From Folioceros fuciformis (Eukaryota): 44,366 bases of DNA. Positions 9 through 38,400 of this stretch are shown here, one piece after another. How positions within the stretch are numbered: the first letter of the stretch is position 1; each line of letters opens with the position of its first letter. The notes below the pieces were generated by a model. The model saw only the letters and a program-made list of their open reading frames with translations, made no database searches and was not told where the DNA came from. The stretch spans positions 1-44,366 of the forward strand of contig JBNGIO010005803.1 in the NCBI GenBank assembly GCA_049999805.1, read 5' to 3'. The position numbers and the translations under genes are program-made.

Positions 9-2474
9 ATGGATCCAGCACGTCTGAGAAATGGGATGCTTGGGGGTGAAGTTTCCAGCGATTGTAGCCGCCAGCAGCAGCAGCAGGCGGCTTTGTGGCG
101 AAAATTTTTCCTGGACCCTGGCATGTGGTGGGATAACCGGAGGGGTGGGGAGAGCTTTGGTTCGCCTGACTTCCGATGTAAGGAGTCCAGTGAGGTCCTC
201 TGGTTAAACAGCATGTTCAAGCCTGCTTGGGTGGACGAGCGGCTCGTGTCTTTGGATATGCAGATGGGTCGAAGTTCCTCTCCTTCTAAGCCGAGCTCTT
301 TGCATAAGTCTGAGCCTGGCAGGTTTCCAGGATCGGAATTGTGTGTCGTCATGGCTGAAACCGTGAGCACCTTATGTCAGCAGTCGAAGCTGACTGAGGC
401 TGTTGGAACCTTGGAATCTCTTGTACAGACAGGCAGTCCTGTTTCTCAGTCTCTCTTCTATATTGTGTTAAAACTGTGCGCATCTAAGAAGAATCTGGTT
501 GCGGGGCGACGAGTTCATAATCTGACTGTCAAACTTGGGTACGAGTCAAATACATTTCTAGGAAACCATATTTTGCGCATGTATGCATCTGGAGGTAGGC
601 TACAGGAGGCCATGGATGTGTTCACCCGGGTGGGTCAGCCAGATGCCTTTATGTGGGTTTCTATAATTTCTGCCTATGCGAAACACGGGAAACCTAGTGA
701 GGCCATACAACTGTACCAGGAGATGCGCAACTCAGGAGTCAAGGCGACTGCTCACGTGTTTGTGGCAGCCCTTCAGGCTTGTGCATTGGCTGGGGACTTG
801 AAATCTGGCAGAGAAGTGCACTGTGATGTATTGCACAGTGGCATTCCTGCTAACGTTTTTGTTGGAAACTGCCTGGTGGGGATGTATGCAAAATGTGGGG
901 ACCTGGAAGATGCTCGCAGGGTTTTTGACAGCTTAGGCACAAAGGATATTGTGACATGGACGGCTCTGATAGCTGGGTATGCAAATCATGGGCCTGAACA
1001 ACAGGCTCTTGTTCTTTACGAACAAATGGATCAGGAGGGCCTGGTCGTTGCTGACCATGTTACTTTTGCTTGTCTTTTGAAAGCATGTGCAAGCACTGGT
1101 GCTTTACAGAAGGGCAGGGAGCTGCACTCACAAATTGTGGAAAGAGGACAGCTAGATGACATACTTGTGGGTACTTCCCTTGTAGACATGTACGCAAAGT
1201 GTGGCGAGCTGGAGGATGCACGTCGAGTTTTTGACAGCTTGGCCGCAAAAGATGTGGTGACATGGACTGCCCTGATTGCGGAGTATGCACAGCAAGGTCT
1301 CGGCCAAGAGGCACTTACTTTGTATGGACAAATGGAGCAAGAAGGCTTGATTGTGGCTGACTGTGTTACCTTTGCTTGCCTTCTCAAGGCTTGTGCTAAC
1401 GCTGGTGCCTTACAGAAGGGCCGGCAGCTGCACTCACAGATCGTGGAAAGAGGACAGCTAGATGACATAATTGTGGGCACTTGCCTGGTGGACATGTATG
1501 CAAAGTGTGGTGAACTCGAAGAGGCACAGCGTGTTTTTGACAGCTTAGCAACAAAGAATGTTGTGACATGGAATGCCCTGATAGGTGGGTGGGGCGCTTG
1601 TGATGAAGGTCGCAATGCCCTAGCTTGTTTTGAGGAGATGTTAGTCTCCGGTATTGAGCCAGATGCTACTACTTTCACTTGCGTTTTAGGGGCATGCAGT
1701 CACGGGGGACTGGTGAATGAGGGTTGCAGGCACTTCGATTCCATAGTTCAATACCATGGCATCAAGCCTACTACTGAGCATTACAATTGCATGATTGATC
1801 TTCTTGGGCGTGCAGGCCTTTTAGATGAGGCTGAGAACATGCTACTATCATGTGAGAGCCAAAGCAACCTCGTGGGGTTGACTTCTTTGTTGAATGCTTG
1901 CAAAAATCATGGGGATATAGAGAGAGCAACACGGTGTTTTGAAAGTCTCGTTAGACTTGAGCCTCAGTGTGCATCTCCGTATGTGCTCATGGCCAATGCC
2001 TACGCAGATGCAGGCCGGTGGTCTGATGTTGAAAGGATCGAAACACAGAGAATGTTAGCAGGAGCTAACAAGAAGCCTGCAGTGGCGGGCATTGAGGTGA
2101 AAAAGCAAGTACACACATTTGTGGTGGGAGAACGGAGAGATGACCTTGCTCTTCAAGTAGAGAGCACGAATGCACGTCTGAAGCAGGAAGGAGGTCACGT
2201 ACCACACACAAAGTTGGTGTTGAAGCCACTGCCTGAGAAGGAAAAGGAAGACGTGCTTTGCGGGCATGCGGAGAAGTTAGCTCTGGCTTTTGGTCTCTTG
2301 AACACTCCCAGCGGCACGCCTCTGGTGGTCACGAAAAATCTACGCATGTGTAGCGACTGTCACAATTCCACGGAGATCATGTCAAGGGTAGAAAAGAGAG
2401 ACATTGTTGTGAGGGATGGATACCGTGTGCATCGATTCGCAGCTGGTTTTTGCAGTTGTAAGGCTCGACCTTGA
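9..2474 (+). CDS. PLS-class PPR protein with E1/E2 and DYW:KP (ARP-ending) domain; candidate U-to-C RNA editing factor; N-terminus probably truncated by the window edge
   Basis: Intronless 821-aa ORF with P-L-S repeats (VVTWTALIAxY / VTFACLLKAC / LVDMYAKCG), P2-L2-S2, E domains, KKPAVAGIEV, HAEKLA, CSDCH and C-terminal CSCKARP. The frame is open upstream of base 9 and paralogues have ~45 more N-terminal residues. Confidence 0.95.
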   Translation: MDPARLRNGMLGGEVSSDCSRQQQQQAALWRKFFLDPGMWWDNRRGGESFGSPDFRCKESSEVLWLNSMFKPAWVDERLVSLDMQMGRSSSPSKPSSLHKSEPGRFPGSELCVVMAETVSTLCQQSKLTEAVGTLESLVQTGSPVSQSLFYIVLKLCASKKNLVAGRRVHNLTVKLGYESNTFLGNHILRMYASGGRLQEAMDVFTRVGQPDAFMWVSIISAYAKHGKPSEAIQLYQEMRNSGVKATAHVFVAALQACALAGDLKSGREVHCDVLHSGIPANVFVGNCLVGMYAKCGDLEDARRVFDSLGTKDIVTWTALIAGYANHGPEQQALVLYEQMDQEGLVVADHVTFACLLKACASTGALQKGRELHSQIVERGQLDDILVGTSLVDMYAKCGELEDARRVFDSLAAKDVVTWTALIAEYAQQGLGQEALTLYGQMEQEGLIVADCVTFACLLKACANAGALQKGRQLHSQIVERGQLDDIIVGTCLVDMYAKCGELEEAQRVFDSLATKNVVTWNALIGGWGACDEGRNALACFEEMLVSGIEPDATTFTCVLGACSHGGLVNEGCRHFDSIVQYHGIKPTTEHYNCMIDLLGRAGLLDEAENMLLSCESQSNLVGLTSLLNACKNHGDIERATRCFESLVRLEPQCASPYVLMANAYADAGRWSDVERIETQRMLAGANKKPAVAGIEVKKQVHTFVVGERRDDLALQVESTNARLKQEGGHVPHTKLVLKPLPEKEKEDVLCGHAEKLALAFGLLNTPSGTPLVVTKNLRMCSDCHNSTEIMSRVEKRDIVVRDGYRVHRFAAGFCSCKARP

Positions 2475-3029: not shown

Positions 3030-5933
3030 ATGGCCACTCTATGGCAGCCGAATGCCTTGTGTTCCCACCAAACCGATGGCTGTACAGCAAGTCTACGAGA
3101 AGCTCCCCCTCACCTGACCTTGGTCAATCAGCCGCTGGCGAACAGTCAAGCCTCTAGGTCCAGCAGTGTAGGGAACCCAGCAGTTCCGAGGAAATGGTTG
3201 GCAAGGGAAGGATTTTCCAAAGCTGGTGGTCATCAGGAGAAGTCCCAGGAGCTAGTGTGGCGGCGACTTATTGTGGACCCTGCCATGTGCTGGGAGAACG
3301 GGCGACGCAGGAAGAGCTCTTCTTCCCCTTGCTCCCGGCGTAAGGGGTCTGGCGATGTCCTCTGGTTAAACAACACGGTCAAGCCAGACTGGGTGGATGT
3401 GCATACGCAAACAGATCATGATGCCTCTCCTTCCAAGTCTAGCGCCTCGGACAGGTCTCCGCCTGACAGACGTGCAGGACCGGAGGAGATGGGCGTCGTG
3501 ACGGCTGCAACCTTGAGCACGTTATGTGAGCAGGAGAAGCTTGATGAGGCCGTTGAAGCCCTGGAATCTCTGGCGCAGACAGAGTTTCCTATCCCTCAGT
3601 TTCTCATTTACAATGTGCTAAAACTGTGTGCAGCTAAGAAGGATCTGCGTGTAGGGCGACGAGTTCATGATATCACTATCAAGCTTGGGTACGAGTCGAA
3701 TACATACTTGGCGAACCATATCTTACGCATGTATGCAAGTGGAGGTAGGCTGCAGGAGGCCATGGATGTGTTCACCAGAATGGACAAACCAGATGTGTTC
3801 ATGTGGATTTCCATAATCTCTGCCCATGCCAAACATGGGCAACCTAGTGTGGCTATACGACTGTACCATGAGATGCGTAGCTCAGATGTGAAGGCTAATG
3901 CGTACGTCTTTGTTGCAGCTCTTCAAGCTTGTGCATTTGCTACCGACTTGGATTCGGGCAAACAAGTGCACTGTGACGTGTTGAACAGTGGCATTGCACC
4001 TAACTTGTTTGTTGGCAGCTGCCTCGTGGACATGTATGCCAAATGCGGCGCACTGGGCGATGCACACAGGGTTTTTGACAGTCTGGCCTCGAAGGACGTG
4101 GTTACATGGAACGCCCTGATAGGTGGGTATGCGAATCAGGGACTCGAGCAAGAGGCGCTTGTACTGTATGAGCAAATGGAGCAGGAGGGCCTGATTGTGA
4201 GTAGTCCTGTCACTTTTGCTTGCCTTCTGAAGGCTTGTGCAAGCACTGGTGCCTTGCAGACGGGCAGGCAACTGCACTCGCAGATAGTGGAAAGAGGACA
4301 GCTAGATGACATACTTGTCGGCACTGGCCTGGTAGATATGTATGCAAAGTGTGGTGAACTGGAAGAAGCACGCAGAGTTTTTGACAGCTTGTCTGCAAAA
4401 AATGTGGTGACATGGACAGCTCTAATTGCCGGGCATGTACAGCAAGGTCTTGGCCAGGAGGCTCTTGTCTTGTACGAGAAAATGGAGCAGGAAGGCCTGA
4501 TTGTGGGTAATCACGTTACTTACGCTTGCCTTCTGAAGGCTTGTGCAAGTGCCGGTGACTTGCAGAAGGGCAAGCAGCTGCACTCTCAGATCGTGGATAG
4601 GGGGCAGTTGGGTAGTTTACTTGTGAGCACTTGCCTGGTAGACATGTATGCAAAGTGTGGCGAATTGGAAGAGGCACGCAGAGTTTTTGACAGCTTGGCC
4701 ACAAAAAACGTGGTGACATGGACAGCCCTGATTGCCGGGTATGCACAGCAAGATCTCGGCTACGAGGCACTTGTTCTGTATGGTCAAATGGAGCAGGAGG
4801 GCCTCATAGTGCCTGATTCTGTCACTTTTGTTTGCCTTCTCAAGGCCTGTGCTAGCTCCGGTGCCTTGCAGAAGGGCAGGCAGCTGCACTCACAGATCGT
4901 GGAAAGAGGACAGTTGGATACCAACATACTTGTGGGCAACTCCCTGGTGGACATGTATGCAAAATGTGGTGCCCTGGAAGACGCTCGCCGGGTTTTTGAC
5001 AGCCTGGCCACCAAGGACGTGGTGACATGGAACGCCCTGATAGCTGGGTTTGGTGCCTGTGATGAAGGTCACATGGCATTAGCCTGTTTCGAGGAGATGT
5101 TAGCTGCCGGTATCCAGCCTAATGACGCCACTTTTTCTTGCCTTCTAGTTGCGTGCGGTCATGCTGGACTGGTGAATGAGGGTCGCAAGCACTTCGATTC
5201 CATGTTGGAACAGCATGGCGTGAAACCTACCAGTGAGCATCACAATTGCATGATTGATCTACTCGGGCGGGCAGGTCATCTAGAGGAGGCAGAAACCTTG
5301 TTATTAGCCTGTGAGAGCGGAAGCAACGTGGTGGGGTTGACGTCTTTGCTGAATGCCTGCAAATGTCATGGAGACGTTGAAAGGGCTGCATGGTGTTTTG
5401 AACGTCTGGTTAGGCTGCAGCCTCACGGTGCATCCGCATACGTTCTGATGGCGAACGTCTACGCGGACGCAGGTAGGTGGGCCGATGTATCCCGGACCGA
5501 AACACACCGAGTAGTAGCAGGCGCTACCAAGAAACCAGCAGCGGCGACCGTCGAGGTGAAGAAGCAAGTACACACGTTTGTGGTAGGAGAAAGAAGAGAC
5601 GACCTTGCTCTTCAAGTAGAGAGCACGAATGCTCGTCTGCAGCAGGAGGGGGGCCACGTGCCACGCACCAAGTTGGTGTTGAAGCCACTTTCCGAGGAGG
5701 AGAAGGAAGACGCTCTTTGCGGGCATGCTGAGAAGCTGGCTTTGGCGTTTGGTCTCTTGAATACTCCCAGTGGCACACCTCTGGTGGTAACGAAGAATCT
5801 ACGCATGTGCAGTGACTGCCACAGTTCCACGGAGATCATGTCACGGATCGAAAAGAGAGACATTGTTGTAAGGGATGGGTACCGTGTGCATCGATTCGCA
5901 GCTGGCTCTTGTAGTTGTGACGGTCGACCGTGA
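3030..5933 (+). CDS. PLS-class PPR protein with DYW:KP (GRP) domain
   Basis: 967-aa intronless ORF starting MATLWQP; three 36-35-31 aa triplets; KKPAAATVEV, HAEKLA, CSDCH, ends CSCDGRP. Confidence 0.95.
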   Translation: MATLWQPNALCSHQTDGCTASLREAPPHLTLVNQPLANSQASRSSSVGNPAVPRKWLAREGFSKAGGHQEKSQELVWRRLIVDPAMCWENGRRRKSSSSPCSRRKGSGDVLWLNNTVKPDWVDVHTQTDHDASPSKSSASDRSPPDRRAGPEEMGVVTAATLSTLCEQEKLDEAVEALESLAQTEFPIPQFLIYNVLKLCAAKKDLRVGRRVHDITIKLGYESNTYLANHILRMYASGGRLQEAMDVFTRMDKPDVFMWISIISAHAKHGQPSVAIRLYHEMRSSDVKANAYVFVAALQACAFATDLDSGKQVHCDVLNSGIAPNLFVGSCLVDMYAKCGALGDAHRVFDSLASKDVVTWNALIGGYANQGLEQEALVLYEQMEQEGLIVSSPVTFACLLKACASTGALQTGRQLHSQIVERGQLDDILVGTGLVDMYAKCGELEEARRVFDSLSAKNVVTWTALIAGHVQQGLGQEALVLYEKMEQEGLIVGNHVTYACLLKACASAGDLQKGKQLHSQIVDRGQLGSLLVSTCLVDMYAKCGELEEARRVFDSLATKNVVTWTALIAGYAQQDLGYEALVLYGQMEQEGLIVPDSVTFVCLLKACASSGALQKGRQLHSQIVERGQLDTNILVGNSLVDMYAKCGALEDARRVFDSLATKDVVTWNALIAGFGACDEGHMALACFEEMLAAGIQPNDATFSCLLVACGHAGLVNEGRKHFDSMLEQHGVKPTSEHHNCMIDLLGRAGHLEEAETLLLACESGSNVVGLTSLLNACKCHGDVERAAWCFERLVRLQPHGASAYVLMANVYADAGRWADVSRTETHRVVAGATKKPAAATVEVKKQVHTFVVGERRDDLALQVESTNARLQQEGGHVPRTKLVLKPLSEEEKEDALCGHAEKLALAFGLLNTPSGTPLVVTKNLRMCSDCHSSTEIMSRIEKRDIVVRDGYRVHRFAAGSCSCDGRP

Positions 5934-6254: not shown

Positions 6255-8115
6255 TTACGAGATACGTAAGCATCTCTCCTTGATCATCCTAATGACTGCC
6301 TCGGCATCAACCGTCACCCCCACCTTCACCGAGGGGTGGCCGCTCCACTCTGTAGGGGGGTCCCATCTGCGCGGAATAACATGCCACAAAGTAATCAGTC
6401 TAAGCAACATTGAAGGACCACCTGCCGAACGGGAAGTCTACTCACTCTTTGTCGTTGCTGTTGAAGATAGTCAGGCCCCTACTGATACCATCTTGCTGGA
6501 CCCTGATGACCCCTTCAGAGTAGGTCAGAAGCGTTGGATCTATGGTAGCAACTACTGTCGTCGGATCATGAAGATAGATCGCTGATACCACAAGGGAACA
6601 TCAGGTTCTGGAAACGTAGGTTCCACAACCTACGTGAACCATGCTTGTGTGATCACAAAGCAGTAACTTTATCAAAACGAGAATGGATGTGGCATACCAT
6701 CTATACCATAGGCCTCTCGATGGTAACTGAAGTAGAACTGGGAAATGTTGTACAGATACTTGCTGAACCTGCCGTTGCTTGTTTGCCATTGCCTCATATC
6801 AGATCCTGCAGGAGAGGGTACGTAACTGCCTCACAATTTCCAACAACTTTATCCCCATTCCTTGTAGCAACTGTGATCATGCCTGCCCACACACGTCCAC
6901 AATCCATACCTGTCAACTGCACCTGATGGGTGATGTTCAGGCCCACAACCAAGATATCAGCACCAGAAGTGAAGACGATGTCGGCAGCTTCCGGGTCTCC
7001 GAGCATCTGCCACGAACAACGAGATATCAAGAGCCTCCCGTCTTCAAAAGCTCCAACAAACCGATACAGGTTTGTGTGAACAACAATCGGAAACTCACAT
7101 TTGCTTCGGCAGCGGGATTGACGTTCCCATTGACGAAGAAGGCTCCCCCAAGAACAACGATCTGAGCTACTTTAGCGGCAAACGAGGGGTCATCTTCAAT
7201 TGCCTGGAGACAGAAAGTCCTAATGCGCTAACGTCAGATGTCTTTCGACAGGGTCTGTCCGCTTGAAACACAACGCAGCCAAGTGGCAGTCCTTCCAAAC
7301 CATCCCCATCTACCTTGGCCAAATTCGTCAGGGGCCCGAGCGCCACGACAGTGATCATCCCAGGCTCCGCACTCACTTTCTGATTGAGGAAATCTGGGGC
7401 CGAGAGAGATATCGCTTTACCCTTGGGCGCAGGCGGATACGTATTTCCGAGCCCATCAGCCCCATGCACAAAATCTGCAATCCGTTCTTTCGCAGCTCCC
7501 TGCATACAAGCTCGGGCACGCTGGTATGAGAGAAACCCAGCCCAAGCTGAGCTTATGCTTGGCAGACATTGTGCACACTAACTGCCCTCATCCAAATCAG
7601 GGGTCCCCTACAGTTGCTTCGCTGGACTGCAGACTCGAATTTCCACGTCGGGCAAGAAGCTTACCCTGAGAGAAGTAAGCAGCCCCTGTGAAACCGGGAT
7701 GTCCTCTCTGCCAGCCACCTCGAGCTACACCACGGGACGGGACAACGAACCCAGTCATAAGTCAGCCAGACGAAGAGCCCACAACAAAGCGCACAGCCTC
7801 TGCAGCACACGCATGCATCAACCCCCACCAAATGCAAGGCATTCTGCGTTGCCATGGCAGTCCGCACGTTGCCAAAGGTCGTAGTCAGCCCGATGACATC
7901 CAACTCCTCCGACTCCAGAGCAAGAAAGATGGCCATGGCGTCATCTGCATCACCCACATCCAGCAACCACACCACCCTCCCCTCGTCTCTTAGTCACCAC
8001 CACCCACCCGCCGAACAACGACCGGTGTTTGGGTCCTGTGAAAGGGGAGTAACTGACCGACACCAGGATCCGTGTCGATGATCACTTTCTTCTTGGAGGC
8101 AGAGCTGACGCCCAT
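6255..8115 (-). CDS. URH2: Inosine/uridine-preferring nucleoside hydrolase (URH2/NSH2-like), multi-exon
   Basis: Spliced exons with GT-AG boundaries give MGVSSASKKKVIIDTDPGV|DDAMAIFLAL, IADFVHGADGLGN, ITVVALGPLTNLA, GGAFFVNGNVNPAAEAN, GDPEAADIVFTSGAD, IYLHDP and VKVGVTVDAEAV. ATG at 8115, TAA at 6257-6255. The DxDxxxDD motif is diagnostic of the family. Confidence 0.93.
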
Positions 8116-13097: not shown

Positions 13098-16000
13098 TCA
13101 GGGTCGGCCCTTACAACTGCAACAACCTGCTTCGAATCGATGCACACGGTACCCATCTCTTACAACGATGTCCCTCTGCTCAACCCTTGACATGATCTCG
13201 GTAGACCTGTGGCAGTCACTACACATGCGTAGATTCTTCGTCACCACTAAAGGTGTGCCACTCGGAGTGTTCAAGAGACCAAACGCCAGAGCTAGCTTCT
13301 CAGCATGCCCACAAAGCGCATCTTCCTTTTCCTTCTCAGACAGTGGCTTCAAAACCAACTTCGTGTGTGGAACGTGTCCTCCTTCCTGCTTCAGACGTGC
13401 ATTTGTGCTCTCTACTTGGAGAGCCAGATCATCTCTTCGTTCTCCCACCACAAATGTGTGTACCTGCTCCTTCACCTCAATGCCCGCCACGGCAGGTTTT
13501 TTGTTGGCTCCTGCTACTATTCTCTGTCTTTCGATCCTATCTACATCGGCCCACCTACCTGCATCCGCATACGCATTGGCCATGAGCACATATGGGGACG
13601 CACTCTGAGGCTCCAGCCTTACAAGACTTTCAAAACACTTTGTCGCCCTCTTTAAATCTCCGTGACTTTTGCAGGCATTCAGCAAAGACATAAACCCCAC
13701 AACATTGCTTTGGCTTTCACATGACAATAGCGTGCTCTCTGCCTCATCTAAATGGCCTGCACGCCCAAGAAGATCAATCATGCAATTGTAATGCTCGACA
13801 GTGGGTTTGATGCCATGCTGTTCAAACATGGAATCAAAGTACTTACGACCCTCGTTCACCAGTCCTGCATGACTGCATGCTACCAAAAGGCAAGTGAAAG
13901 TTGCATCATCAGGCTGGATGCCATCGACCAACATCTCCTCAAAGCAAGCTAGTGCGCTGTGCCCCTCATCACAAGTACCACACCCAGCTATCAGGACATT
14001 CCATGTCACCACATTTTTTGTCGCCAAGTTGTCAAAGACTCTGCGCGCGTCTTTAAGTTTGCCACATTTTGCATACATGTCCACCAGGCAAGTGCCCACA
14101 AGTGTGTTATCCAGCAGTCCTATTTCCACAATCTGAGAGTGCAGCTGCCTACCTTTCTCTAAGGCACCAGCAGTGGCACAGGCCTTGAGAACGCAGGCAA
14201 AAGTAACATGGTTACCAACAATAAGGCCTTCCTGCTCCATTTGGTCGTAGACAACAAGCGCCTCTTGCCCAAGCCCCTGATTTGCATACCCAGCTATAAG
14301 AGACGTCCATGTCACCACATCCTTTGTGGCCAAGCTGTCAAACACCCTGCGTGCGTCTTCCAGTTCGCCACATTTTGCGTACATGTCCACCAAACAGTTG
14401 GCCACCAGTCTGTTATCTAGCTGTCCTCTTTCCACGATCTGTGAGTGCAGCTCTCTGCCCTTCTGCAAGGCACCTGAGCTTGCGCAGGCCTTCAGAAGGC
14501 AAGCAAAGGTTACATGGTTACTGACGATAAGCCCTTCCTCCTCCATTTGTTCGTGTAGTTTGAGTGCGTCTTCTCCAAGTCCATGGTTCGCATACCCAGC
14601 TATCAGGGACGTCCATGTCACCACATCCTTTATAGCCAAGTTTTCAAATACCTTGCGTGAATCCCCCAGCTCGCCACATTTTGCGTACATGTCCACCAGG
14701 CAGTTGCCCACCAATAAGTTATCCAGCTGTCCTCTCTCCACAATCTGCGAATGGAGCTGCCTTCCCTTCTGCAAGGCACCAGCGCTTGCACAGGCCTTCA
14801 GAAGGCAAGCGAAAGTAACATGGTTACAAACCATCCAGCCCTCCTGCTCCATTTTCTCGTACAGAAAAAGTGCCTCCTGACCAAGACCTTGCTGTGCATA
14901 CCCAGCAATCAGAGCCGTCCATGTCACAACATCCTTTTTGGTGAGGCTGTCAAAAACGCGACGTGCATCTTCCAATTCGCCACACTTTACATACATGTCC
15001 ACCAGGCAAGTGCCCACAAGCACGCTATCTAGCTGTCCTCTATCTACAATCTGTGAATGCAGCTGCCTGCCCTTTCGTAAGTCAGCAGCACTTGCACACG
15101 CCTTCAGAAGGCAAGCAAAAGTTACGTGGTTTCCCACAATAAGGCCCTCCTCCTCCATTTGTCCATACAGAACAAGCGCCTCCTGGCCGAGGCCATGATC
15201 TGCATAGCCAGCAATCAGGGCCGTCCATGTCACCACATCCTTGGTAACCAAGCTTTCAAAAACCCTGCGTGCATCTTGCAGTTCACCGCACTTTGCATAC
15301 ATGTCCACGAGGCAGTTGCCGATGAACACGTTAGGAGGAATGCCACTGTGCACAACATCGCTGTGAACTCTTCTCCCAGATTTCAAGTCCACCGCAGCTG
15401 CACATGCTTGAAGGGCTGCTACAAAGACATGAGCATCCGCCTTCACACCCGAGCTTCGCATCGCATGGTACAGTTCGATGGCCTCGCGGGGTTTCCCATG
15501 TCTGGCATGAGCAGAGATTATGGAAAACAACATAAAGGCATCTGGTTTGCCATTCCTGATGAACACATCCATGGCCTCTTCTAGTCTACCTCCATACGCA
15601 TACATGCGCAAGATATGGTTCCCCAAAAATGTACTCGATTCGTAACCATGTTCAACAATGAGATCATGAACTCGTCGCCCCGCAACCAGATCCTTCCTAC
15701 CTGCGCACAGTTTTAGCACAGCATAGAACAGAGACTCAGATATAGGACGGTCGGTTTGGGCCAGACATTCCAGGGCCCCCACGGCCTCAGTGAGCTTCCC
15801 CTGCTCACATAACGAGCCCACGATTACAGGCGTGACGACGCCCGTTCTTGATCCTGCACACCTACCAGCCCCAGGCTTATCCGGAGGTCTCGACGTGGAA
15901 GGAGATGTGCCGTCATCCACCTGCATATCCAAGGAAACCAGCTGCTTATCCACCCAAGCTGGCTTGAACATGCTGTTTAACCAGAGGAGCTCACCAGACC

Positions 16001-16316
16001 CTTTACGTCGGAAGTCAGGCGAACCAGAGCTCTTCTTATCTCGCCTGTTATCCCACCACATTGCAGGGTCCAGAAAGAACTGTCGCCACAGCAGCTCCTG
16101 TTCCTGCTCATTGCGGCTACCGTGGCTGGAAAATCCGTCCGCGGCAGCCCAATCTGTCGCAAGTGTTGTGTCCCTTACACTGTTGCACCTGGAGGACTGG
16201 TAGCTTGCCAGAGCTTGACTACCATAAGTGAGATGGGTGGGAGCTCGTGGTAGAAGCCCAGTAGCTCCACCGATTTGCTGGGTCCGCAACGGATCCAATT
16301 GCGATACGTTGCCCAT
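13098..16316 (-). CDS. PLS-class PPR protein with DYW:KP (GRP) domain
   Basis: Intronless ORF. The track start at 16352 is a TTG; the ATG at 16316 (MGNVSQLDPL) aligns with paralogue starts. Four triplets; KKPAVAGIEV, HAEKLA, CSDCH, ends CSCKGRP. Confidence 0.95.
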   Translation of the reverse strand: MGNVSQLDPLRTQQIGGATGLLPRAPTHLTYGSQALASYQSSRCNSVRDTTLATDWAAADGFSSHGSRNEQEQELLWRQFFLDPAMWWDNRRDKKSSGSPDFRRKGSGELLWLNSMFKPAWVDKQLVSLDMQVDDGTSPSTSRPPDKPGAGRCAGSRTGVVTPVIVGSLCEQGKLTEAVGALECLAQTDRPISESLFYAVLKLCAGRKDLVAGRRVHDLIVEHGYESSTFLGNHILRMYAYGGRLEEAMDVFIRNGKPDAFMLFSIISAHARHGKPREAIELYHAMRSSGVKADAHVFVAALQACAAAVDLKSGRRVHSDVVHSGIPPNVFIGNCLVDMYAKCGELQDARRVFESLVTKDVVTWTALIAGYADHGLGQEALVLYGQMEEEGLIVGNHVTFACLLKACASAADLRKGRQLHSQIVDRGQLDSVLVGTCLVDMYVKCGELEDARRVFDSLTKKDVVTWTALIAGYAQQGLGQEALFLYEKMEQEGWMVCNHVTFACLLKACASAGALQKGRQLHSQIVERGQLDNLLVGNCLVDMYAKCGELGDSRKVFENLAIKDVVTWTSLIAGYANHGLGEDALKLHEQMEEEGLIVSNHVTFACLLKACASSGALQKGRELHSQIVERGQLDNRLVANCLVDMYAKCGELEDARRVFDSLATKDVVTWTSLIAGYANQGLGQEALVVYDQMEQEGLIVGNHVTFACVLKACATAGALEKGRQLHSQIVEIGLLDNTLVGTCLVDMYAKCGKLKDARRVFDNLATKNVVTWNVLIAGCGTCDEGHSALACFEEMLVDGIQPDDATFTCLLVACSHAGLVNEGRKYFDSMFEQHGIKPTVEHYNCMIDLLGRAGHLDEAESTLLSCESQSNVVGFMSLLNACKSHGDLKRATKCFESLVRLEPQSASPYVLMANAYADAGRWADVDRIERQRIVAGANKKPAVAGIEVKEQVHTFVVGERRDDLALQVESTNARLKQEGGHVPHTKLVLKPLSEKEKEDALCGHAEKLALAFGLLNTPSGTPLVVTKNLRMCSDCHRSTEIMSRVEQRDIVVRDGYRVHRFEAGCCSCKGRP

Positions 16317-16972: not shown

Positions 16973-16990
16973 CCCCCCCCCCCCCCCCCC
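16973..16990. repeat. Poly-C homopolymer (18 nt)
   Basis: Uninterrupted C run in the intergenic region. Confidence 0.9.
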
Positions 16991-24492: not shown

Positions 24493-24502
24493 TATATATA
24501 TA
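24493..24502 (-). promoter_or_regulatory. Putative TATA box of the thioesterase gene
   Basis: TATATATATA in otherwise GC-rich sequence ~215 bp upstream of the ATG. Confidence 0.4.
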
Positions 24503-25790: not shown

Positions 25791-25837
25791 AGACTCTGAC
25801 AAATCTCTAGTTGGATAGTTCGTGATGACCAGAGCAA

Positions 25838-26195: not shown

Positions 26196-27035
26196 CGCAA
26201 ATAAGGTGTAAAGTATAGTGCAAGTTTATTAACTACTAGATCTATTACCAAAACCTAATCACTGTACATATATAAAAAATGAGCCTCAATTACACAACTT
26301 ACATGAAGGACTTTTGCAAGTTATGGCAAACCTGCTCCTTCCATTTCTCAAGTTGTGGCAAACAAGACATAGAGACCTAATGTAACTATTATAACATGAA
26401 TGGCTATAAGTGACTATTGTGACATGAATGGCTGTCAGTCCCCTAATAAACAGGGATCTACATTTCAAGAGTTAGCTACAATAGGCTAAAATTTGCGCTG
26501 TGTACTCCCTTTTCAGTCCCTTTACCCGCCTTGTGGCATGACAGTTTTGGTCATGATCTTCACTGCTCTATGCATTTAGGTAGCACCACTTCTATTGGCA
26601 TTTACTTGTCTGTAGTTTGTCATTGCAGGTTTACGAGCATCGTGGGTTGTCACCGAGGCTTCCCGCTGAGGCTCCGAAGTTGAATAAATTTTATCAATTC
26701 AAAATACTCCATGATTCCGATGCGTTTGCTTCGCTGGGCATGTCCAACACGCTGCACTAGCATAGCCCCCCTCTCCTGTATACCTTGCTGCTGCTACTGG
26801 CATTCTTGCGGGTTGAGATGCACTGGCCAGAAATGGCATCTCCACCCTACATGTAGGATGTATTATGTTAAATCAAATAAAAAGACGGCAAAATGTCACT
26901 GTACAACGATGCCATGAGGAACATTGCATTGGCACAGTCAAAACGCCCACCTCCGATTCCAACCGACAGCTGAGTCTTACTCCCTATTCCCGAATGCAAT
27001 TTTTCACCTGTTGAGCGTTGACTGCTCACTCCTTC

Positions 27036-29948
27036 TCATGGTCGACCTTTACATGTGCAACAACCACCTGCAAATCGATGCACTCTGTACCCATCCCTCA
27101 CAACAATCTCCCTCTTTTCAACTCTTGACATGATCTGTGTGGAACTGTGGCAGTCACTGCACATGCGGAGGTTCTTCGTTACCACCAGAGGTGTGCCAGT
27201 GGGAGTGTTCAACAGACCAAACGCAAGAGCTAGCTTCTCAGCATGCCCGCAAAGAGCATCTTCCTTCTCCTTCTCAGAGAGTGGCTTCAAAGTGAGCTTC
27301 GTGTTTGGTATGTGGCCCCCATCCTGCTTCATTCGTGCATTTGTGCTCTCTATTTGAAGAGCAAGATCGTCTCTTCGTTCTCCCACCACAAATGTATGTA
27401 CCTGCTTGTTCACCTCAATCCCGGCTACAGCAGGTTTCTTGCTAGCTCCTACCAACAATCTCTGTGCTTCAATCCTATCTACGTCACTCCACCTACCTGC
27501 ATCTGCATACGCATTGGCCATGAGCACGTACGAGGATGCACTCTGAGGTTCCAGTCTAACGAGACTTTCAAAACATCGCGTGGCTCTATCGATATCCCCG
27601 TGACTTCTGCAGGCGTTCAGCAAAGACTTCAACCCCACAACATTGCTTTGGCTCTCACATAATCGTAGCATCGTCTCTGCCTCATCTAAATGGCCTGCAC
27701 GCCCAAGAAGATCAACCATGCAGTTGTAGTGCTCTACAGTAGGTTTGATGCCATGCTGTTCGACCATGGAGTCAAAGTACTTGCGACCCTCATTCACAAG
27801 TCCTCCGTGACTGCATGCTACTAACAGGCAAGTGAAGGTGGCATCATCAGGCTTCGTGCCGGCAATTAGCATGTCCTCAAAACAGGCCAGCGCATCGTGA
27901 GCCTCATCACAGAGACCACAACCACCTATCAGGGAGTTCCACGTCACCACATCCTTCGTGGCCAAGCTGTGGAAAACCCGACATGCATCTTCCACAGCGC
28001 CACACTTTGCATACATGTCCACCAGGGAGTTGCCCACCAGTACGCTATCCAGCTGCCCTCTTGCCACAATTTGCGAGTGCAGCTGCCTGCCATTTTGTAA
28101 TGCACCAGCGCCTGCACAAGCATTGAGAAGGCAAGCGAAAGTAACATGGTCACCCACAATCAGACCTTCCTGGTCCATTTCTCCATACAGAACAAGTGCC
28201 TCCTCACCAAGACCTTGCTGTGCATACCCTGCAATCAGGGCTGTCCACGTGACCAAATTTTTTGTAGACAAGCTGTCAAAAACCCTGCGAGCTTCCTCCA
28301 GTTCCCCACATTTTGCATACATATCTACTACGCAAGTCCCCACGATTATGTTATCTAGCTGTCCTCTTTCCACAAGCTGTAAGTGCAGCTGCCTGCCCTT
28401 CTGCAAGGCACCAGCACTTGCACACGCCTTCAGAACGCAAGCAAAAGTGACCTCGTCAGCCACAATCAGACCTTCGCGCTCCATTTGGCCGTACATGTCA
28501 AGCGCCTCCTGCCCGAGGCCTTGCTGTGCATACCCTGCAATCAGGGCATTCCATGTGACAATATCCTTCGAGGCCAAGCTGTCAAACACATGGCGGGCAT
28601 CTTCCAGTTCACCACATTTCACATACATGTCAACCAGGCAGTTGCCGACGAGTACGTTATCTACCTGTCCCCTTTTCACAATCTGTGAGTGCAGCTGCCT
28701 GCCCTCGTACAAGGCACCAACACTTGCACATGCCTTCAGAAGGCAGGCAAAAGTCACATGGTCAGCCACAACCAGGCACTGCTGCTCCATTTGTCCATAC
28801 AGAACAAGCGCCTCTTGGCCCAAACCGTGTTTTGCATACCCAGCGATCAGGGAAGTCCATGTCACAACATCCTTAGTTACCAAGCTGTCAAAAACCCTAC
28901 GTGCATCTTCCAGTTCGCCACATTTTGCATACATATTCACCAGGCAGTTGCCAACAAACAAGCTAGGAGGCATGCCACACTCCCACACATCACGGTGCAC
29001 TCTTCTGCCCGATTCCAAGTCCCCACATGACGCACAAGCCTGAAGCGTTGCGACAAAGATGTGCGCATCTGCCTTTACTCCTGAGCTACGCATTTCTTGG
29101 TACAGTTGCACAGCCACATTGGGTCTCCCTAGTTTCGCATTGGCGGAGATGATGGAATACCAAGTGAAGACACTTGGCCTGCCAACTCTGGTGAACACAT
29201 CCATGGCCTCCGGTAGCCTACCTCCAAATGCATACATACGTAAGATATGATTCCCCACATATGAATCTGACTCGTAGCCAAGCGTGACGATGAGATCATG
29301 AACTCGTCGCCCCAAAACAACATCCTTCTTAACCGCACAAAGCTTCAACACACTACAACAGAGAGAACGAGAGATACGAAAGTCTGCCTGCGCCAGAGAT
29401 TCCAAAGCTCCAACGGCCTCTGGAAGCTTCCCCTGTTGACAAAAAGTGCTTACTGTTGCAGCCGTTACCACGCCCATCTCCGATCCTGCACGCCTGCCAG
29501 GCTCAGGCTTATTCAAAAAGCTCCACTTGGAAAGAGAGGCACCAGAACCCATCTGCATATCCAAAGAAACCAGCTTCCCATCCACCCATGCTGGCTTCCA
29601 CGTGCTGTTTAACCAGAGAACCTCGTCGGACTCCTTGCACCGAAAGTCTGGCGAATCTGAGCTCTTCTTGCCTACTCTGTTATCCCACCACATGGCCGGG
29701 TCCAGAAAAAATCGTCGCCACAAGAGCTCCTGCTCCTGCCCCTGCCCATCTTTATCGGTGGACAATACTTCCCCAGCCATACATTTGCTTGAAGATGCGG
29801 AGCTTCTTACACTGCTGCACCGACACGCTTGGCTGCTCGCCAGAGGTTGTCTCCATAACGTTGAGTGACCAGGAGCTCCAGGTAGAATCCGTGTACACTC
29901 ACCAGTTTGTTGGGCCCATGACGGATCAGCTGGCCACACTTTGGCCAT
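27036..29948 (-). CDS. PLS-class PPR protein with DYW:KP (GRP) domain
   Basis: 970-aa intronless ORF starting MAKVWPADP; three triplets; KKPAVAGIEV, HAEKLA, CSDCH, ends CTCKGRP. Confidence 0.95.
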   Translation of the reverse strand: MAKVWPADPSWAQQTGECTRILPGAPGHSTLWRQPLASSQACRCSSVRSSASSSKCMAGEVLSTDKDGQGQEQELLWRRFFLDPAMWWDNRVGKKSSDSPDFRCKESDEVLWLNSTWKPAWVDGKLVSLDMQMGSGASLSKWSFLNKPEPGRRAGSEMGVVTAATVSTFCQQGKLPEAVGALESLAQADFRISRSLCCSVLKLCAVKKDVVLGRRVHDLIVTLGYESDSYVGNHILRMYAFGGRLPEAMDVFTRVGRPSVFTWYSIISANAKLGRPNVAVQLYQEMRSSGVKADAHIFVATLQACASCGDLESGRRVHRDVWECGMPPSLFVGNCLVNMYAKCGELEDARRVFDSLVTKDVVTWTSLIAGYAKHGLGQEALVLYGQMEQQCLVVADHVTFACLLKACASVGALYEGRQLHSQIVKRGQVDNVLVGNCLVDMYVKCGELEDARHVFDSLASKDIVTWNALIAGYAQQGLGQEALDMYGQMEREGLIVADEVTFACVLKACASAGALQKGRQLHLQLVERGQLDNIIVGTCVVDMYAKCGELEEARRVFDSLSTKNLVTWTALIAGYAQQGLGEEALVLYGEMDQEGLIVGDHVTFACLLNACAGAGALQNGRQLHSQIVARGQLDSVLVGNSLVDMYAKCGAVEDACRVFHSLATKDVVTWNSLIGGCGLCDEAHDALACFEDMLIAGTKPDDATFTCLLVACSHGGLVNEGRKYFDSMVEQHGIKPTVEHYNCMVDLLGRAGHLDEAETMLRLCESQSNVVGLKSLLNACRSHGDIDRATRCFESLVRLEPQSASSYVLMANAYADAGRWSDVDRIEAQRLLVGASKKPAVAGIEVNKQVHTFVVGERRDDLALQIESTNARMKQDGGHIPNTKLTLKPLSEKEKEDALCGHAEKLALAFGLLNTPTGTPLVVTKNLRMCSDCHSSTQIMSRVEKREIVVRDGYRVHRFAGGCCTCKGRP

Positions 29949-30437
29949 CCCACAGGCCCCTCCTTCAGAGAATCAGACCCACAACAAACTACGCAGCCTG
30001 TTGTTGGACTGGCCATAGTTTTGCTTACCACGTTGTCCATTCTGGCATTCAATCATCAGGCTGATATTGGTACATGATAGGTATTTACAAATTTATTGAA
30101 TTTAATCTCAAGAATTCATACCAAAGAGGAATCCATCTGTTTCACAGCGTATTGGCATCTCATGCATCACATGCACGCCCGCAAGGCGAAGAGTGGGGAC
30201 CATCCCAGGTTCCAAGCCCCTTTGACCCCTCCATCCGTGGCCCTGTGGATCATGCTGCTGTTGGAAGGCGTGCGTGTTCTATTTTCTTGTGTAGGCGGCT
30301 ATTCCATCGGTAAACTGTCTGCACTGCCCAGACAAAGCAAGCAGCACTAATGCTGTGGTGATTGACAGGACCTGGGCACCCCGAAACTTCCTGGGTTGAT
30401 TTTGTGTGTCTTATGTTCCCAAATCGGGGTCTGGAAG

Positions 30438-32548
30438 ATGGCCACAGTATGGCAACCGGATGCCCTGTGGGTCCAACAAAATGGTGGGTGTACAGGTATT
30501 CTATCAGACGCTACCGCTCACCACTTGTTGAGTAATCAATCGCCGGCAAGTAGCCATTCCACCAGCTGCAGCAGCGCAGGGAGCCCAACTCTTCCTGGAA
30601 AGTGGATGACCGGGGAACGATTTCCCAGCGATCGCAGTCGCAAGGAGCAAGAGCTCTTGTGGCAACAATTTTTTCTGGACCCTGCAATGTGATGGGATAA
30701 CAGGCGAGGTAAGAAGAGTTGTGGTTCGCCCGATTTCCGCGGAAGGTGTCCGGCGAGGTCCTCTGGTTACACAGCACGTTCAAGTCAGTATGGGTCGATG
30801 AGCAGCTGGTTTCTTTGGATATGCTGGTTTCTTAGTGACTCGCTTCACAAGTCTAGCTCTCCTATTGATCCTGATGCAAGAGCAGATGTGGGTGTCGGAA
30901 CTGCTGTATCAGTGAGCACGTTATGTCTACAGGGGAATCTTACGTGGGCAGTTGAAGCCCTGGAATCTTTGACGCAGGGAGGCTGTTCTATTTCTCAGTC
31001 TCTCTTTTGCAGTGTGCTAAATCTGTGTGCAGCTAAGAAAGATCGGGTTACTGGCAGACGAGGTCATATCTTACTGTGAAACTTGGGTACGAGTCAGATA
31101 CGTTCTTTGGGAACCATGCCTTGCGATTGTATGAAGGCGGAGGAATGCTACAGGAGGCCATGAATGTGTTCACCAGGGTGTGGTGTGGGCAAGTCATATG
31201 CCTTCATGTGGTTTTCCATAATCTCTGCACATGTTAAACTTGGGACACCCAATGAGGCCATCAGACTGTACAACGAGATGTGTAGCTCAGGTTTGCAGGC
31301 GAATGCTCATGTTTTTGTCGCAGCCCTTCAAGCTACGGCCTCTGCCGTGGACTTGGAACCTGGCCAAAAGGTACACCGTGACGTGTAGCACAGCGGCCTT
31401 CCTCCTAACTTCTTTGTTGGTAACTGCTTGGTGGACATTTACGTGCAAGTGCTGGTTCCTTACAGAAGGGCAGGCAGCTGCACTCGCAGATTGTGGGAAG
31501 AGGCCGGCTGGATATCGTCCTGATAGGGAACTGCTTGGTGGACATGTACGCAAAGTGAGGCGAGGTGAAAGATGCACATCATGTTTTTGACAGTTTGGAC
31601 ACCAAGAATCTGGTGACTTGAATGCCTGATAGCTGGGTATGGTTCTTGCCATGAAGGTTGCAAAGCACTGGCTTGTTTTGAGGGGATGGTAATGGCCGGG
31701 ATTCAGCCTGATGATGCTACTTTTACTTGCCTTCTAGTAGCGCGCAGTCATGCAGGGCTGGTGGATGAGAGAGGCATGCACTTTGACGCTATGGTTGAAC
31801 AGCATGGCATCAAATCTACTGTTGAGCATTACAGTTGCATGATAGATCTGCTTGGCGGTGCTGGCCATTTAGGTGAAGGAGAGAACGTGCTACTATCATG
31901 TGAGAGTCAAAGCGATGCTGTGGGCTTGATGGCTTTTCTGAATACCAGCAAAAATCATGGAGATGTGGTTAGAGCGATGCGGTGTTTTGAAAGTCTCGTG
32001 AAACATGGGCTTCAAGTTGCATCTGCGTCTGTGCTCATGGCCAACGACTATGCCAAATGCATGTCGGTGGGCCGATGTTGAGGGATTGAAACACTAAGAA
32101 CGGCATCAGGATCTAACAAGACACCTGCAGTGGCTGGTATTGAGGTGAAGAGGCAGGTACATACCTTTGTAGTGGGAGAGAACAGAGATGATGATGTAGA
32201 TGACATTTGTAGCGGGAGAGAACAGAGAAGCGTGCTCTCAAGCGCCCAAGCTAGAGAGCACACCTCTCAAGCAGGTGGGGGGCTATGCACGACATACAAA
32301 ATTTGTTTCCAAGCCACTCTCTGAGAAGGAGAAAGAAGATGCGGGCACGCTGAGAAGCTTGCTCTTGCGTTTGGTCTCTGGAACACTCCGGCTGGCACAC
32401 CTCTAGTGGTATCCAAGGACTTGAGGATGTGCAGTAACTGCCACAGGTCCACAGATATCCTTTCTAAGGTTGAACACAGAGACATAGTTGTAAGTGATGG
32501 GTACCGAGCGCATCGATTCGCCGCTGGTTGTTGGAGTTGTCACCTTGA
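30438..32548 (+). pseudogene. Pseudogene of the same PPR-DYW:KP family
   Basis: Starts MATVWQPDALW and is collinear with the intact paralogues. Stops at 30690 (TGG>TGA), 31386 and 31556; several frameshifts; central triplets deleted; a deletion just before HAEKL (32346); residual KTPAVAGIEV and CSNCH. Confidence 0.92.
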
Positions 32549-35404: not shown

Positions 35405-38400
35405 TCAGGGCCGACCCTTACAGCTGCAAGCACCAGCAGCAAATCGGTGCACTCGATACCCATCCCTTACAACGATGTCTCTCTTTTCAACCCTTGACAT
35501 GATCTCCGTAGAACTGTGGCAGTCGCTGCACATGCGCAAATTCTTCGTTACCACCAGAGGTGTGCCACTCGGAGTATTCAAGAGACCAAACGCCAGAGCT
35601 AGCTTCTCGGCATGCCCGCAAAGCGCATCTTCCTTCTCCTTCTCCGACAGGGGCTTCAAAACCAACTTTGTGTGTGGTACGTAGCCCCCTTCTTGCTTCA
35701 GACGTGCATTTGTGCTCTCTACTTGGAGAGCAAGATCATCTTTTCGCTCTCCCACAGTAAATGTATGTACCTGGTTCTTCACTTCAATGCCCGCCACTGC
35801 AGGTTTCTTGTTAGCTCCTGCTACCTTCCTCTGTGTTTCAATCCGTTGTACATCAGTCCACCTACCTGCATCTGCATAGGTATTGGCCATGAGTACATAT
35901 GCAGATGCCCCCTGAGGGTCTAGTCCGACGAGACTTTCAAAGCACCGGGTTGCCCTCTCTACATCCCCGTGATTTTTGCAGGAATTCAGCAAAGAAGTCC
36001 AACCCACAACATCGCTTTGGCTTTCACACGATAACAGCATGTTCTCTGCCTCGTCTAAACTGCCTGCACGCCCGAGAAGATCGATCATACAATTGTAATG
36101 CTCAGTCGTAGGTTTGATGCCATGCTGTTCGACCATGGAATCGAAGTACCTGCGACCCTCCTTCACCAGTCCCTCATGACTGCATGCTGCTAAAAGGCAA
36201 GTGAAAGTAGCATCATCTGGCTCAATACCAGCAACTAACATTTCCTCAAAGCAAGCTAGTGCGCCGTGACCTTCATCACAAGAACCACACCCACCTATCA
36301 AGGCATTCCATGTCACCACATTTTTTGTTGCCAAGCTGTCGAAGACCTCGCGTGCATCTTCCAGTTCACCACACTTTGCATACATGTCTATCAGGCACGT
36401 GCCCACAAGTATGCTATCCAGCTGTCTACTTTCTATAATCTGTGAGTGTAGCTGTCTGCCCTTATGTAAGGCGCCAGCACCTGCACAGGCTTTCAGAAGG
36501 CATGCAAAAGTAACCTCGTCAGCCACCGTGAGGCCCTCCTGCTCCATTTGTTCATACAGCACAAGCGCCTCTTGGCTGAGATCTTGTTGTGCATACCCAG
36601 CAATCAGGGTTGTCCATGTCACCACATCCTTTGCATTCAAGCTGTCAAAAACCTGGCGTGCTTCCTCCAATTCGCCACATTTTGCATACATGTCCACCAG
36701 GCAAGTGCCTACAAGCATGTGATCCAGCTGTCCCCTTTCCACAATCTGTGTGTGCAGCTGCCTGCCCTTCTGTAAGGCACCGGTGCTTGCACATGCTTTC
36801 AGAAGGCAAGCAAAAGTCACATGGTTACCTAGAATCAGGCCCTCCTGCTCCATTTGTTCATGCAGAACCAGCGCCTCCTTACCAAGTCCGTGATTTGCGT
36901 ACCCCGAAATCAGGGCAGTCCAAGTCACCACATTTTTCGTAGTCAACCTGTCAAAAACTCCGCGCGCTTCTTCCAGTTCGCCACACTTCGCATACATGTC
37001 TACCAGGGAAGTTCCAACAAGCATGTTATCGAGCTGTCCTCTTTCTACAACTAGTGAATGCAGCTGCCTGCCCCCCTGTAAACAACCAGTAATTGCACAA
37101 GCTTTGAGAAGGCAAGCAAAAGTGATATGGTTGCCTACGATCAAGCCCTCCTGCTTCATTAGTCCATACAGAACAAGCGCCTCTTGCCCGAGCCCATGAT
37201 TTACATATCCAGCTATCAGGGCATTCCACGTAACAACATCCTTTGTGACCAAGGCGTCAAAAACTCGACGCGCATCTTGAAGTTCACCACACTTTGCATA
37301 CATGTCCACCAGGCAAGTGCCCACAAGCATGTTCTGTAGGTGCCCTCTTGCTATAATCTGAGAATGCAGATGCCTCCCCTCGTGTAAGGCACCAGTTATT
37401 GCACAGGCTTTGAGAAGGCAAGCAAAAGTGACATGATTGCCCACAATCACGCCCTCCTGCTCCATTTGTCCGTACAAAACAAGCGCCTGTGGTCCCATCC
37501 CATGATTTGCATACCCAGATATCAGAGAATTCCACGTTACCACATCCTTTGTAGCCAAGCTGTCGAACACCCTGCGTGCATCTTCCAGTTCGCCACATTT
37601 TGCATACATGTCCACCAGGCAGCTGCCAACAAACAAGTTAGGAGGAATGCCACTATGCAACACATCACAATGCACTTTTCTGCCAGATTCCAAGTCCGCA
37701 ACGGATGCACAAGCTTGAAGCACTGCCACAAAGACATGAGGATTCGCCTTCACACCTGAGCTACGCATCTCATGGTACAGTTGTATGGCCTCATTAGACT
37801 TCCCATGTTTAGCATGAGCAGAGATAATGGAAAACCACATGAAGGCATCTGGTTTGCCCATCCTGGTGAACACATCCATGGCCTCTTGAAGCCTACCTCG
37901 ACATGCATACATGCGTAAGATATGGTTTCCCACGATTGTATTTGACTCGTACCCAAGTTGAACAGTGAGATAATGAACTCGCCGCCCCATAGCCACATCC
38001 TTCTTGGCTGCACATAATTTTAGCACTGTACAGAACAGAGTCTGAGAAATAGGAGAGTCCGTCTGGGCCAAAGCTTCCAGAACTCCGACGGCCTCCGTAA
38101 GCTTTCCCTGCTGACACAACGTGTTCACTGTTGCAGGTGTTACGGCGCTCATTTCCGCTCCTGTACGCCTGCCAGGTTCAGGCTTGTCCAGAGAGGTCCA
38201 TTTGGAAGTAAAGGAAGCATGCCCCATCTTTCTATCCAACGAAAGTAGCTGCTTACCAGCCCAAGCTGGCTTGAATGTGCTGTTTAGCCAGAGTACATCG
38301 CCAGACCCCTTGCGCCGGAAGTTAGGCGAGCGAGTACTCTTTTCAACTCCTCTGTTAGCCCTCCACCTCGCAGGGTCCAGAAAATACTGTCGCCACAACG

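Follow-up and report, generated by a model that had tools for sequence, protein, structure and literature searches.

The stretch of DNA analysed here, contig JBNGIO010005803.1 of Folioceros fuciformis (44,366 nucleotides, hereafter the window), is very likely a gene-dense piece of the nuclear genome carrying a loose cluster of seven paralogous PLS-class PPR genes of the DYW:KP GRP subgroup. Six uninterrupted long open reading frames were found in the 44-kb window, all of them intronless PPR genes, and a seventh copy is a pseudogene. Pfam matches in all six reading frames comprised PPR families, the E_motif (PF20431, above cut-off) and DYW_deaminase (PF14432, 109–113 bits). The genes are named by their first coordinate.

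9..2474, forward strand: g9, PPR-DYW:KP gene, 821 residues as read, 2 central triplets, ARP end
3030..5933, forward strand: g3030, PPR-DYW:KP gene, 967 residues, 3 central triplets, GRP end
13098..16316, reverse strand: g13098, PPR-DYW:KP gene, 1072 residues from the first ATG, 4 central triplets, GRP end
17576..20479, reverse strand: g17576, PPR-DYW:KP gene, 967 residues, 3 central triplets, GRP end
27036..29948, reverse strand: g27036, PPR-DYW:KP gene, 970 residues, 3 central triplets, GRP end
35405..38635, reverse strand: g35405, PPR-DYW:KP gene, 1076 residues, 4 central triplets, GRP end, S2 = ND and not NN
30438..32540, forward strand: pseudogene, seventh paralogue, with several in-frame stops, a frame change and missing central triplets

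The pseudogene was found in a tblastn search of the window with one PPR protein, which gave 13 matches; the 4 that lay outside the six genes all fell within 30438–32540 on the forward strand. This copy aligns with g17576 at the N-terminus and in the P2-to-DYW part (47% identity), still contains recognisable HAE and CxxCH motifs, and is oriented head to head with g27036. The gene g9 is truncated by the left edge of the window. Its frame (3–2474, forward strand) is open from base 3, so that the ATG at 9 is probably not the real start, which would lie beyond the window. Ahead of the N-terminal motif there are 25 residues in g9, compared with 68–76 in the other five genes.

Motif order is the same in all six proteins: a leader, a conserved motif of 59 residues, L-S-P-L, S-(P36-L35/36-S31)n, P2(35)-L2(36)-S2(32), E1, E2 and a C-terminal domain of 133 residues. 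The number of central triplets, n, is 2, 3, 4, 3, 3 and 4 in g9, g3030, g13098, g17576, g27036 and g35405, giving PLS tracts of 14–20 motifs per protein. The C-terminal domains lie as follows.

2073..2471, forward strand: g9 DYW:KP domain, 133 residues, KPAVAG..HAE..K88..M92-CSDCH..ARP
5532..5930, forward strand: g3030 DYW:KP domain, 133 residues
13101..13499, reverse strand: g13098 DYW:KP domain, 133 residues
17579..17977, reverse strand: g17576 DYW:KP domain, 133 residues, nearest to 9kfx, 7w86 and 7o4e
27039..27437, reverse strand: g27036 DYW:KP domain, 133 residues
35408..35806, reverse strand: g35405 DYW:KP domain, 133 residues

In each of the six, the domain begins with KPAxA (KPAVAG or KPAAAT) in place of the PG box, carries the zinc-site residues HAE at 65–67 and CSDCH at 93–97, and keeps Lys88 and Met92. 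The last three residues are GRP in five proteins and ARP in g9. Pairwise identity among the six domains is 85–94%. The solved chains closest to the g17576 domain were 9kfx (a synthetic PPR-DYW protein, E 1e-36), 7w86 (DYW1) and 7o4e (the DYW domain of OTP86). The nearest database proteins share 60% identity over the whole length and 71% over S2-DYW, and also end in GGRP; word-indexed protein searches returned no close orthologue above these two values.

Hornwort KP proteins form two subgroups, DRH and GRP, named for their final three residues (PMC9478123, where the subgroup range is traced to Gerke et al. 2020 and Gutmann et al. 2020). Met92 is characteristic of KP domains (PMC9478123), which are 132–133 residues long and in which Lys88 is essential for U-to-C conversion (PMC11845758). 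The initial annotation of this DNA had read the genes as a PPR code repertoire for U-to-C editing, and the domain features (KPAxA, 133 residues, HAE, Lys88, Met92, CxDCH) bear it out as a prediction from sequence, being those of the DYW:KP domain that the literature links to U-to-C.

The window proteins share with hornwort GRP-subgroup PPR-DYW:KP proteins the PLS tract, E1/E2, the 133-residue domain, KPAxA, HAE, K88, M92, CxxCH and the GRP end. They differ from them in nothing of kind; the triplets are more uniform (within-gene identity 71–80% here vs 51–63% in the 8 of 10 database GRP/DRH-type proteins that could be measured, the other two having too few units), and g9 ends in ARP. The six genes are thus further members of a well-described family, in which distinct codes among paralogues are ordinary for PPR editing factors. 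The PPR-DYW:PG C-to-U factors (OTP86/At3g63370, DYW1, PPR56; 7o4e, 7w86) have the same fold family, zinc site, PLS code and register, whereas the window proteins have a KP box, 133 residues and a GRP end in place of a PG box, 136 residues and a DYW end, and are expected to edit in the opposite direction (PMC9478123).

Base-recognition code and variability of the code positions

In P and S motifs, the base is set by the residues at the fifth and the last position (PMC11094755). These residues were read with the code table of the initial annotation (TN=A, TD or SD=G, ND=U, NS=C, NN=Y, with x for an L motif), and all six of its code strings were reproduced exactly. The N-terminal S0, the non-canonical P0 and all L motifs are unread in the strings.

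855..1559, forward strand: g9 variable core (first S to last S before P2), UGxGGxA, then UxY
4005..5018, forward strand: g3030 variable core, GCxAAxAGxU, then YxY
14013..15329, reverse strand: g13098 variable core, UAxGAxUAxUAxA, then UxY
18491..19504, reverse strand: g17576 variable core, UAxUGxUYxA, then UxY
27951..28961, reverse strand: g27036 variable core, UGxUUxAGxU, then UxY
36320..37636, reverse strand: g35405 variable core, GYxGYxAAxGGxA, then UxU

Canonical pairs were present in 62 of 62 P and S motifs, P0 excluded (ND 22, TN 15, TD 11, NN 10, SD 2, NS 2). All six strings are distinct; when aligned at S2, the closest pairs agree at 6 of 8 and at 7 of 10 informative positions. The six different RNA specificities claimed earlier therefore hold as predictions, no string being common to two genes. 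The terminal code is nearly shared: S0 is ND in four genes, NN in one and NS in one, P2 is ND in five of six, and S2 is NN in five of six. Given the P2 and S2 pairs, the targets of the six proteins probably have a U-x-Y context in common (−6 to −4, shortly before the edited base), and the central triplets would set the individual site. In this register E1 aligns at −3 (PMC9478123), which places S2 at −4.

The 19 P-L-S triplets have a mean identity of 75% at the amino-acid level, 78% at the nucleotide level (range 70–84%) and 61% at third positions. Identity is equal within genes (22 pairs) and between genes (149 pairs). With triplets 75% identical in protein and 77 of 102 columns variable, the description of the scaffold as near-constant was overstated.

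Changes per column were counted on a maximum-likelihood triplet tree built without the code codons, a tree that slightly favours the code columns because the other columns helped to build it. The code columns underwent 7 (S31), 6 (P36), 6 (S5) and 4 (P5) changes, with a mean of 5.75 vs 2.5 over all columns, and the chance of four random columns reaching this was 0.006 among all columns and 0.019 among the 77 variable ones. On a tree from all columns, the corresponding probabilities were P = 0.03 and P = 0.08. The pairwise difference, which needs no tree, was 0.50 at code columns vs 0.25 (P = 0.014 against all columns, 0.044 against variable columns). Columns S28 (9 changes), L35 (8), S22 (8), P35 (7) and S6 (7) matched or exceeded the code columns, which ranked 10th to 30th of 102 by pairwise difference and 4th to 30th across measures.

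The most variable columns (L35, S28, S29, P35, S1, S6, P6) cluster at motif junctions, beside the 'last' residue, and at position 6. In the L motif, the final residue (N10 S4 D3 K1 H1) is as variable as the code positions, and L5 hardly varies (A18 V1).

Compared with the average column, the code positions change about twice as often, a modest and method-dependent excess, yet they are neither the sole nor the most changeable positions. The toggling between T, N and S and between D, N and S that had been described does occur, but it is not confined to the code, since S28, L35, S22, P35 and S6 change equally or more. As a check on whether the code positions vary more than other positions, the outcome is borderline, an approximately 2-fold excess with P of 0.02–0.08 against variable columns.

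Age, selection and exchange

Synonymous divergence (dS) was 0.62–0.81 between genes and 0.87 between triplets. The ratio of nonsynonymous to synonymous divergence (dN/dS) was 0.22 in the N-terminal PPR block, 0.16 in P2-S2, 0.17 in E1E2, 0.09 in the DYW domain and 0.175 in the triplets. The pooled proportions of nonsynonymous and synonymous differences (pN/pS) were 0.227/0.768 = 0.30 at the four code codons and 0.128/0.497 = 0.26 at the other 98. This per-column comparison, a crude one in which synonymous sites of two-fold codons are near saturation, showed no excess of replacement over silent change at code positions; the per-site dN/dS test suggested by the initial annotation, run in this form, gave no sign of positive selection there.

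Gene trees of the N- and C-terminal blocks were star-like, with supports of 42–76, too low for the blocks to be compared for recombination. In the triplet tree, the last triplets of three genes grouped together, as did the first triplets of three genes, and one within-gene pair was found, with modest support.

Every code toggle amounts to a single-base step (AAY/ACN/AGC at position 5, GAY/AAY/AGT at the last position), and point change alone can therefore account for the toggles. No trace of recent repeat exchange was found in the PPR tracts, where the longest identical run between genes was 46 nucleotides.

An identical run of 104 nucleotides was observed in the DYW-domain parts of the neighbours g13098 (13267–13370) and g17576 (17745–17848), both on the reverse strand; the other gene pairs have runs of at most 46 nucleotides. 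The 104-nucleotide run may be a short gene-conversion tract. The gene flanks have diverged, save for a 303-nucleotide 3′ stretch that is 80% identical between g17576 (~17240–17540) and g27036 (~26710–27010). Overlaps of neighbouring flanks aside, this is the only flank similarity among the copies.

Together, the dS and dN/dS values, the star-like trees and the diverged flanks indicate an old burst followed by long purifying selection, and no repertoire under construction. The diversity of the codes is old and maintained, and is not being generated now. The constancy of the scaffold comes from purifying selection on the protein and not from TALE-style homogenisation of the DNA. It had been proposed that duplication with point change or repeat exchange generates new specificities. 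Point change suffices for this, but exchange is untraced in the PPR tracts and the copies are old, and a repertoire that is making new specificities at present does not agree with the dS of 0.62–0.81, the dN/dS of 0.09–0.22 or the code-codon pN/pS of 0.30 vs 0.26.

TAL effectors consist of near-identical repeats of 33–35 residues with a two-residue variable site, one repeat per base, and bind DNA. The likeness to the window proteins is that one repeat reads one base via two residues on an otherwise conserved repeat. The window proteins differ in that the target is RNA, the repeats are 31–36 residues long and of three alternating types, and their identity is 75% and not near 100%. No homology to TAL effectors was found in a Pfam scan of the six proteins, where only PPR/TPR-type families matched. 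The label 'TALE-like' thus stands as an analogy only, the repeats being of three types and alike at the protein and not the DNA level (dS 0.87).

Rf-like (RFL) PPR clusters are a nearer evolutionary analogue than TALEs. They resemble the window genes in being clustered paralogues that gain and lose motifs and genes, and in carrying a separate code in each copy (PMC5075784). RFLs are P-class proteins without a catalytic domain, with high similarity within clusters, recombination, and diversifying selection at code residues (PMC5075784), whereas the window genes are of the PLS class with E1/E2 and DYW:KP, are old (dS 0.6–0.9), are under purifying selection, and show no exchange in the PPR tracts. 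The window cluster is thus without the signs of recombination and diversification seen in RFL clusters.

Predicted editing function and alternative explanations

The reading we favour, at a probability of roughly 85%, is that the six genes encode organelle-targeted site-specificity factors for U-to-C editing. The architecture and residues are those observed in the proteins, and the localisation, targets and chemistry are taken over from literature on the family. A PPR-DYW:KP protein would enter the organelle, and its PLS tract would align parallel to single-stranded RNA, one motif per base, with ~14–20 nucleotides bound upstream of the target U. In each P and S motif, the base would be selected by residue 5 together with the last residue, with S2 at −4 and E1 at −3, and the DYW:KP domain would turn the target U into C, Lys88 being the putative group that attacks and cross-links the uridine. 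The six proteins would address six sites, the two to four central triplets giving the difference. The family would go back to an old burst of local duplication, in the course of which triplets were gained and lost and code codons changed by single bases; purifying selection and the death of one gene would have followed.

Several points weigh against this reading. The activity of natural KP proteins is still unshown in the literature, and the designer protein KP6 is capable of C-to-U as well (PMC11845758). The gene g9 ends in ARP and not GRP, and is cut by the window edge. Real binding preferences are less certain than the code strings imply, because the L motifs and the non-canonical P0 are unread.

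A fast-evolving TALE- or Rf-like repertoire, in which recent duplication, repeat shuffling and positive selection at code residues act on a fixed chassis, was the explanation given in the initial annotation, and we consider it unlikely. Rf-like PPR clusters do evolve in this way (PMC5075784), and the window has the expected look, with clustered genes, 2–4 triplets, one dead copy and a different code in each copy. The excess at the code columns (5.75 vs 2.5 changes, P 0.006–0.03; pairwise difference 0.50 vs 0.25, P 0.014) points the same way, but it becomes borderline when set against variable columns (P 0.02–0.08), and as many as 30 of the 102 columns vary no less than the least variable code column does. 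The 104-nucleotide run shared by g13098 and g17576 hints at conversion; it sits, however, in the DYW domain, and the longest run in the PPR tracts is 46 nucleotides. Against this explanation stand a dS of 0.62–0.81 between copies and 0.87 between triplets, dN/dS of 0.09–0.22, pN/pS of 0.30 at code codons vs 0.26 elsewhere, the diverged flanks, and triplets whose likeness within a gene does not exceed that between genes.

The proteins might also bind RNA as read but act as C-to-U editors, dual editors, or plain RNA-binding or stabilising factors, which we regard as improbable. Their zinc-site residues are identical to those of C-to-U DYW domains, natural KP activity is unproven, and besides the dual activity of designer KP6, K88A and other single changes switch the direction of editing (PMC11845758). 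Lys88 is nevertheless present in all six proteins, together with the KP and GRP features; the GRP-based KP2 and KP3 gave U-to-C conversion in E. coli with C-to-U undetected (PMC9478123); and, of all parts of the genes, the DYW domain is under the strongest constraint (dN/dS 0.09). That the majority of copies have no function, and are leftovers of retroposition or segmental duplication with frames kept open by chance, is very unlikely. The absence of introns, the one dead copy, and the ascription of hornwort PPR expansion mainly to retroposition-linked dispersed duplication (PMC13386178) are consistent with such an origin. However, six frames of 821–1076 codons have stayed open at a dS of 0.6–0.8, with dN/dS of 0.09–0.22 in every domain, and all catalytic residues and 62 of 62 canonical code pairs are kept, whereas the true pseudogene is visibly decayed, with stops, a frame shift and loss of triplets.

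N-terminal PDF motif, neighbouring genes and designer editors

The N-terminal motif of 59 residues is present in one copy per protein, with the consensus QExLWRxFFLDPAMWWDNRxxKKSxxSPDFRxKxSxEVLWLNSxxKPAWVD. It was located as follows.

84..260, forward strand: g9 PDF-type motif, 59 residues
3246..3422, forward strand: g3030 PDF-type motif, degenerate, with PCS replacing PDF
15924..16100, reverse strand: g13098 PDF-type motif
20099..20275, reverse strand: g17576 PDF-type motif
29556..29732, reverse strand: g27036 PDF-type motif
38231..38407, reverse strand: g35405 PDF-type motif, with PNF replacing PDF

No Pfam family matched the N-terminal region at E up to 10, only a chance-level match (0.76) was obtained in the protein atlas, and a word-indexed search among shorter proteins returned nothing. 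A profile of the six copies and three database relatives was searched against 1.84 billion representatives. It matched 816 proteins at E ≤ 0.001, of which 329 reached E ≤ 1e-10, and many of the matched proteins have 2–13 copies of the motif. Twenty of the matches were scanned with Pfam: 8 contained an SSB OB fold, 5 were PPR proteins with the motif at the N-terminus, 1 was a kinesin, and 6 were without a Pfam family. In 7 of the 8 SSB OB-fold carriers (2–13 motif copies) the copies follow the fold, and the remaining one has a weak SSB match near the C-terminal end. Named matches were from Sinapis, Ceratopteris, Welwitschia and Kingdonia, one Sinapis protein having three clear copies. Fusions of the PDF motif to PPR proteins also occur in Ceratopteris and Adiantum (ferns) and Diphasiastrum (a lycophyte), as E-type proteins without a DYW domain.

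By sequence, the N-terminal motif is homologous to the PDF motif of the plant OSB single-strand-binding proteins: the pattern W..F..P..WWDNR..K....PDF..K......LWL....P.WV matches the repeated C-terminal motif of plant SSB OB-fold proteins. The window proteins differ from OSB proteins in lacking the OB fold, no SSB or OB-fold match being found by Pfam in the six proteins or their N-termini, and in having the motif only once, at the N-terminal end of PPR editing factors. No paper on a PDF-PPR fusion was found in the literature searched; Gerke et al. 2020 and Gutmann et al. 2020 were outside that search.

The PDF motif of OSB1 binds single-stranded DNA by itself. As a tentative proposal, hornwort GRP/DRH factors might consist of three modules, a PDF motif, a PLS tract and a U-to-C domain, with the PDF motif serving as a sequence-independent grip on the transcript, perhaps generally in seed-free plants; we consider this doubtful.

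The PPR genes are interspersed with unrelated multi-exon genes and do not form a strict tandem array. The following neighbours were recognised.

7167–7577, reverse strand: one exon of an inosine-uridine nucleoside hydrolase
~22.3–24.3 kb, reverse strand: acyl-ACP thioesterase gene, between two PPR genes
39051–43320, reverse strand: multi-exon Integrator subunit 7 gene (INTS7_N, INTS7_HB, plant INTS7 C-terminal domain)

Contigs of four runs were compared with positions 12500–30500, where depth on the PPR genes is inflated by thousands of look-alike contigs. At least 90% likeness to this interval was shown by 4823 contigs of the best DNA data set, and 1827 of these match two places; nearly all lie on the three PPR genes. 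Such a pile-up would be expected if the genome contained a very large family of similar PPR genes, although it is no proof of one. Contigs from three runs join 22762 to 22880 (reverse strand), skipping the 117 bases of an intron of the acyl-ACP thioesterase gene, whose ends, CT..AC, are GT..AG on the minus strand. Contigs of run X3, whose RNA label is a guess, are identical over parts of g13098, g17576 and g27036, though contigs cannot show transcription; the same run has no contig cover at 24520–26322. For hornworts, PPR expansion has been attributed mainly to dispersed duplication linked to retroposition (PMC13386178), and a very large PLS-class expansion and many tandem arrays have been described in a hornwort genome, the PPR genes not being named among the arrays in the available text (PMC7027989).

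In E. coli, U-to-C editing reached ~26% with the designer protein KP2 and ~22% with KP3, both derived mainly from GRP proteins, and C-to-U was not detected (PMC9478123). These designer proteins combine consensus GRP-type C-terminal domains with a consensus PLS scaffold that is altered solely at residue 5 and the last residue (PMC9478123, PMC11845758), which corresponds to the fixed, programmable chassis of the initial annotation. They differ in being synthetic consensus proteins with three triplets, whereas the window genes are natural and have 2–4 central triplets, conserved N-terminal motifs and the PDF motif. The idea that the genes offer a natural template for programmable editors has already been realised in KP2 and KP3 (PMC9478123). 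New here are the seventh, pseudogene copy and the N-terminal OSB-type PDF motif; the family, the code and programmable U-to-C use are already in print (PMC9478123).

For the family, the analysis gives a clear negative result, in that the diversity of specificities is old and maintained and is not in the making now. Six natural GRP-type genes side by side, with a uniform and constrained triplet scaffold, are useful raw material, because natural KP activity is unshown and the designer versions work poorly. The PDF motif suggests an additional nucleic-acid-binding module that designers have not used, and is the one lead worth following up. If the three-module proposal is true, the PDF module may be a general, hitherto undescribed part of the editing machinery of seed-free plants, and possibly the ingredient missing from the low-efficiency KP2 and KP3.

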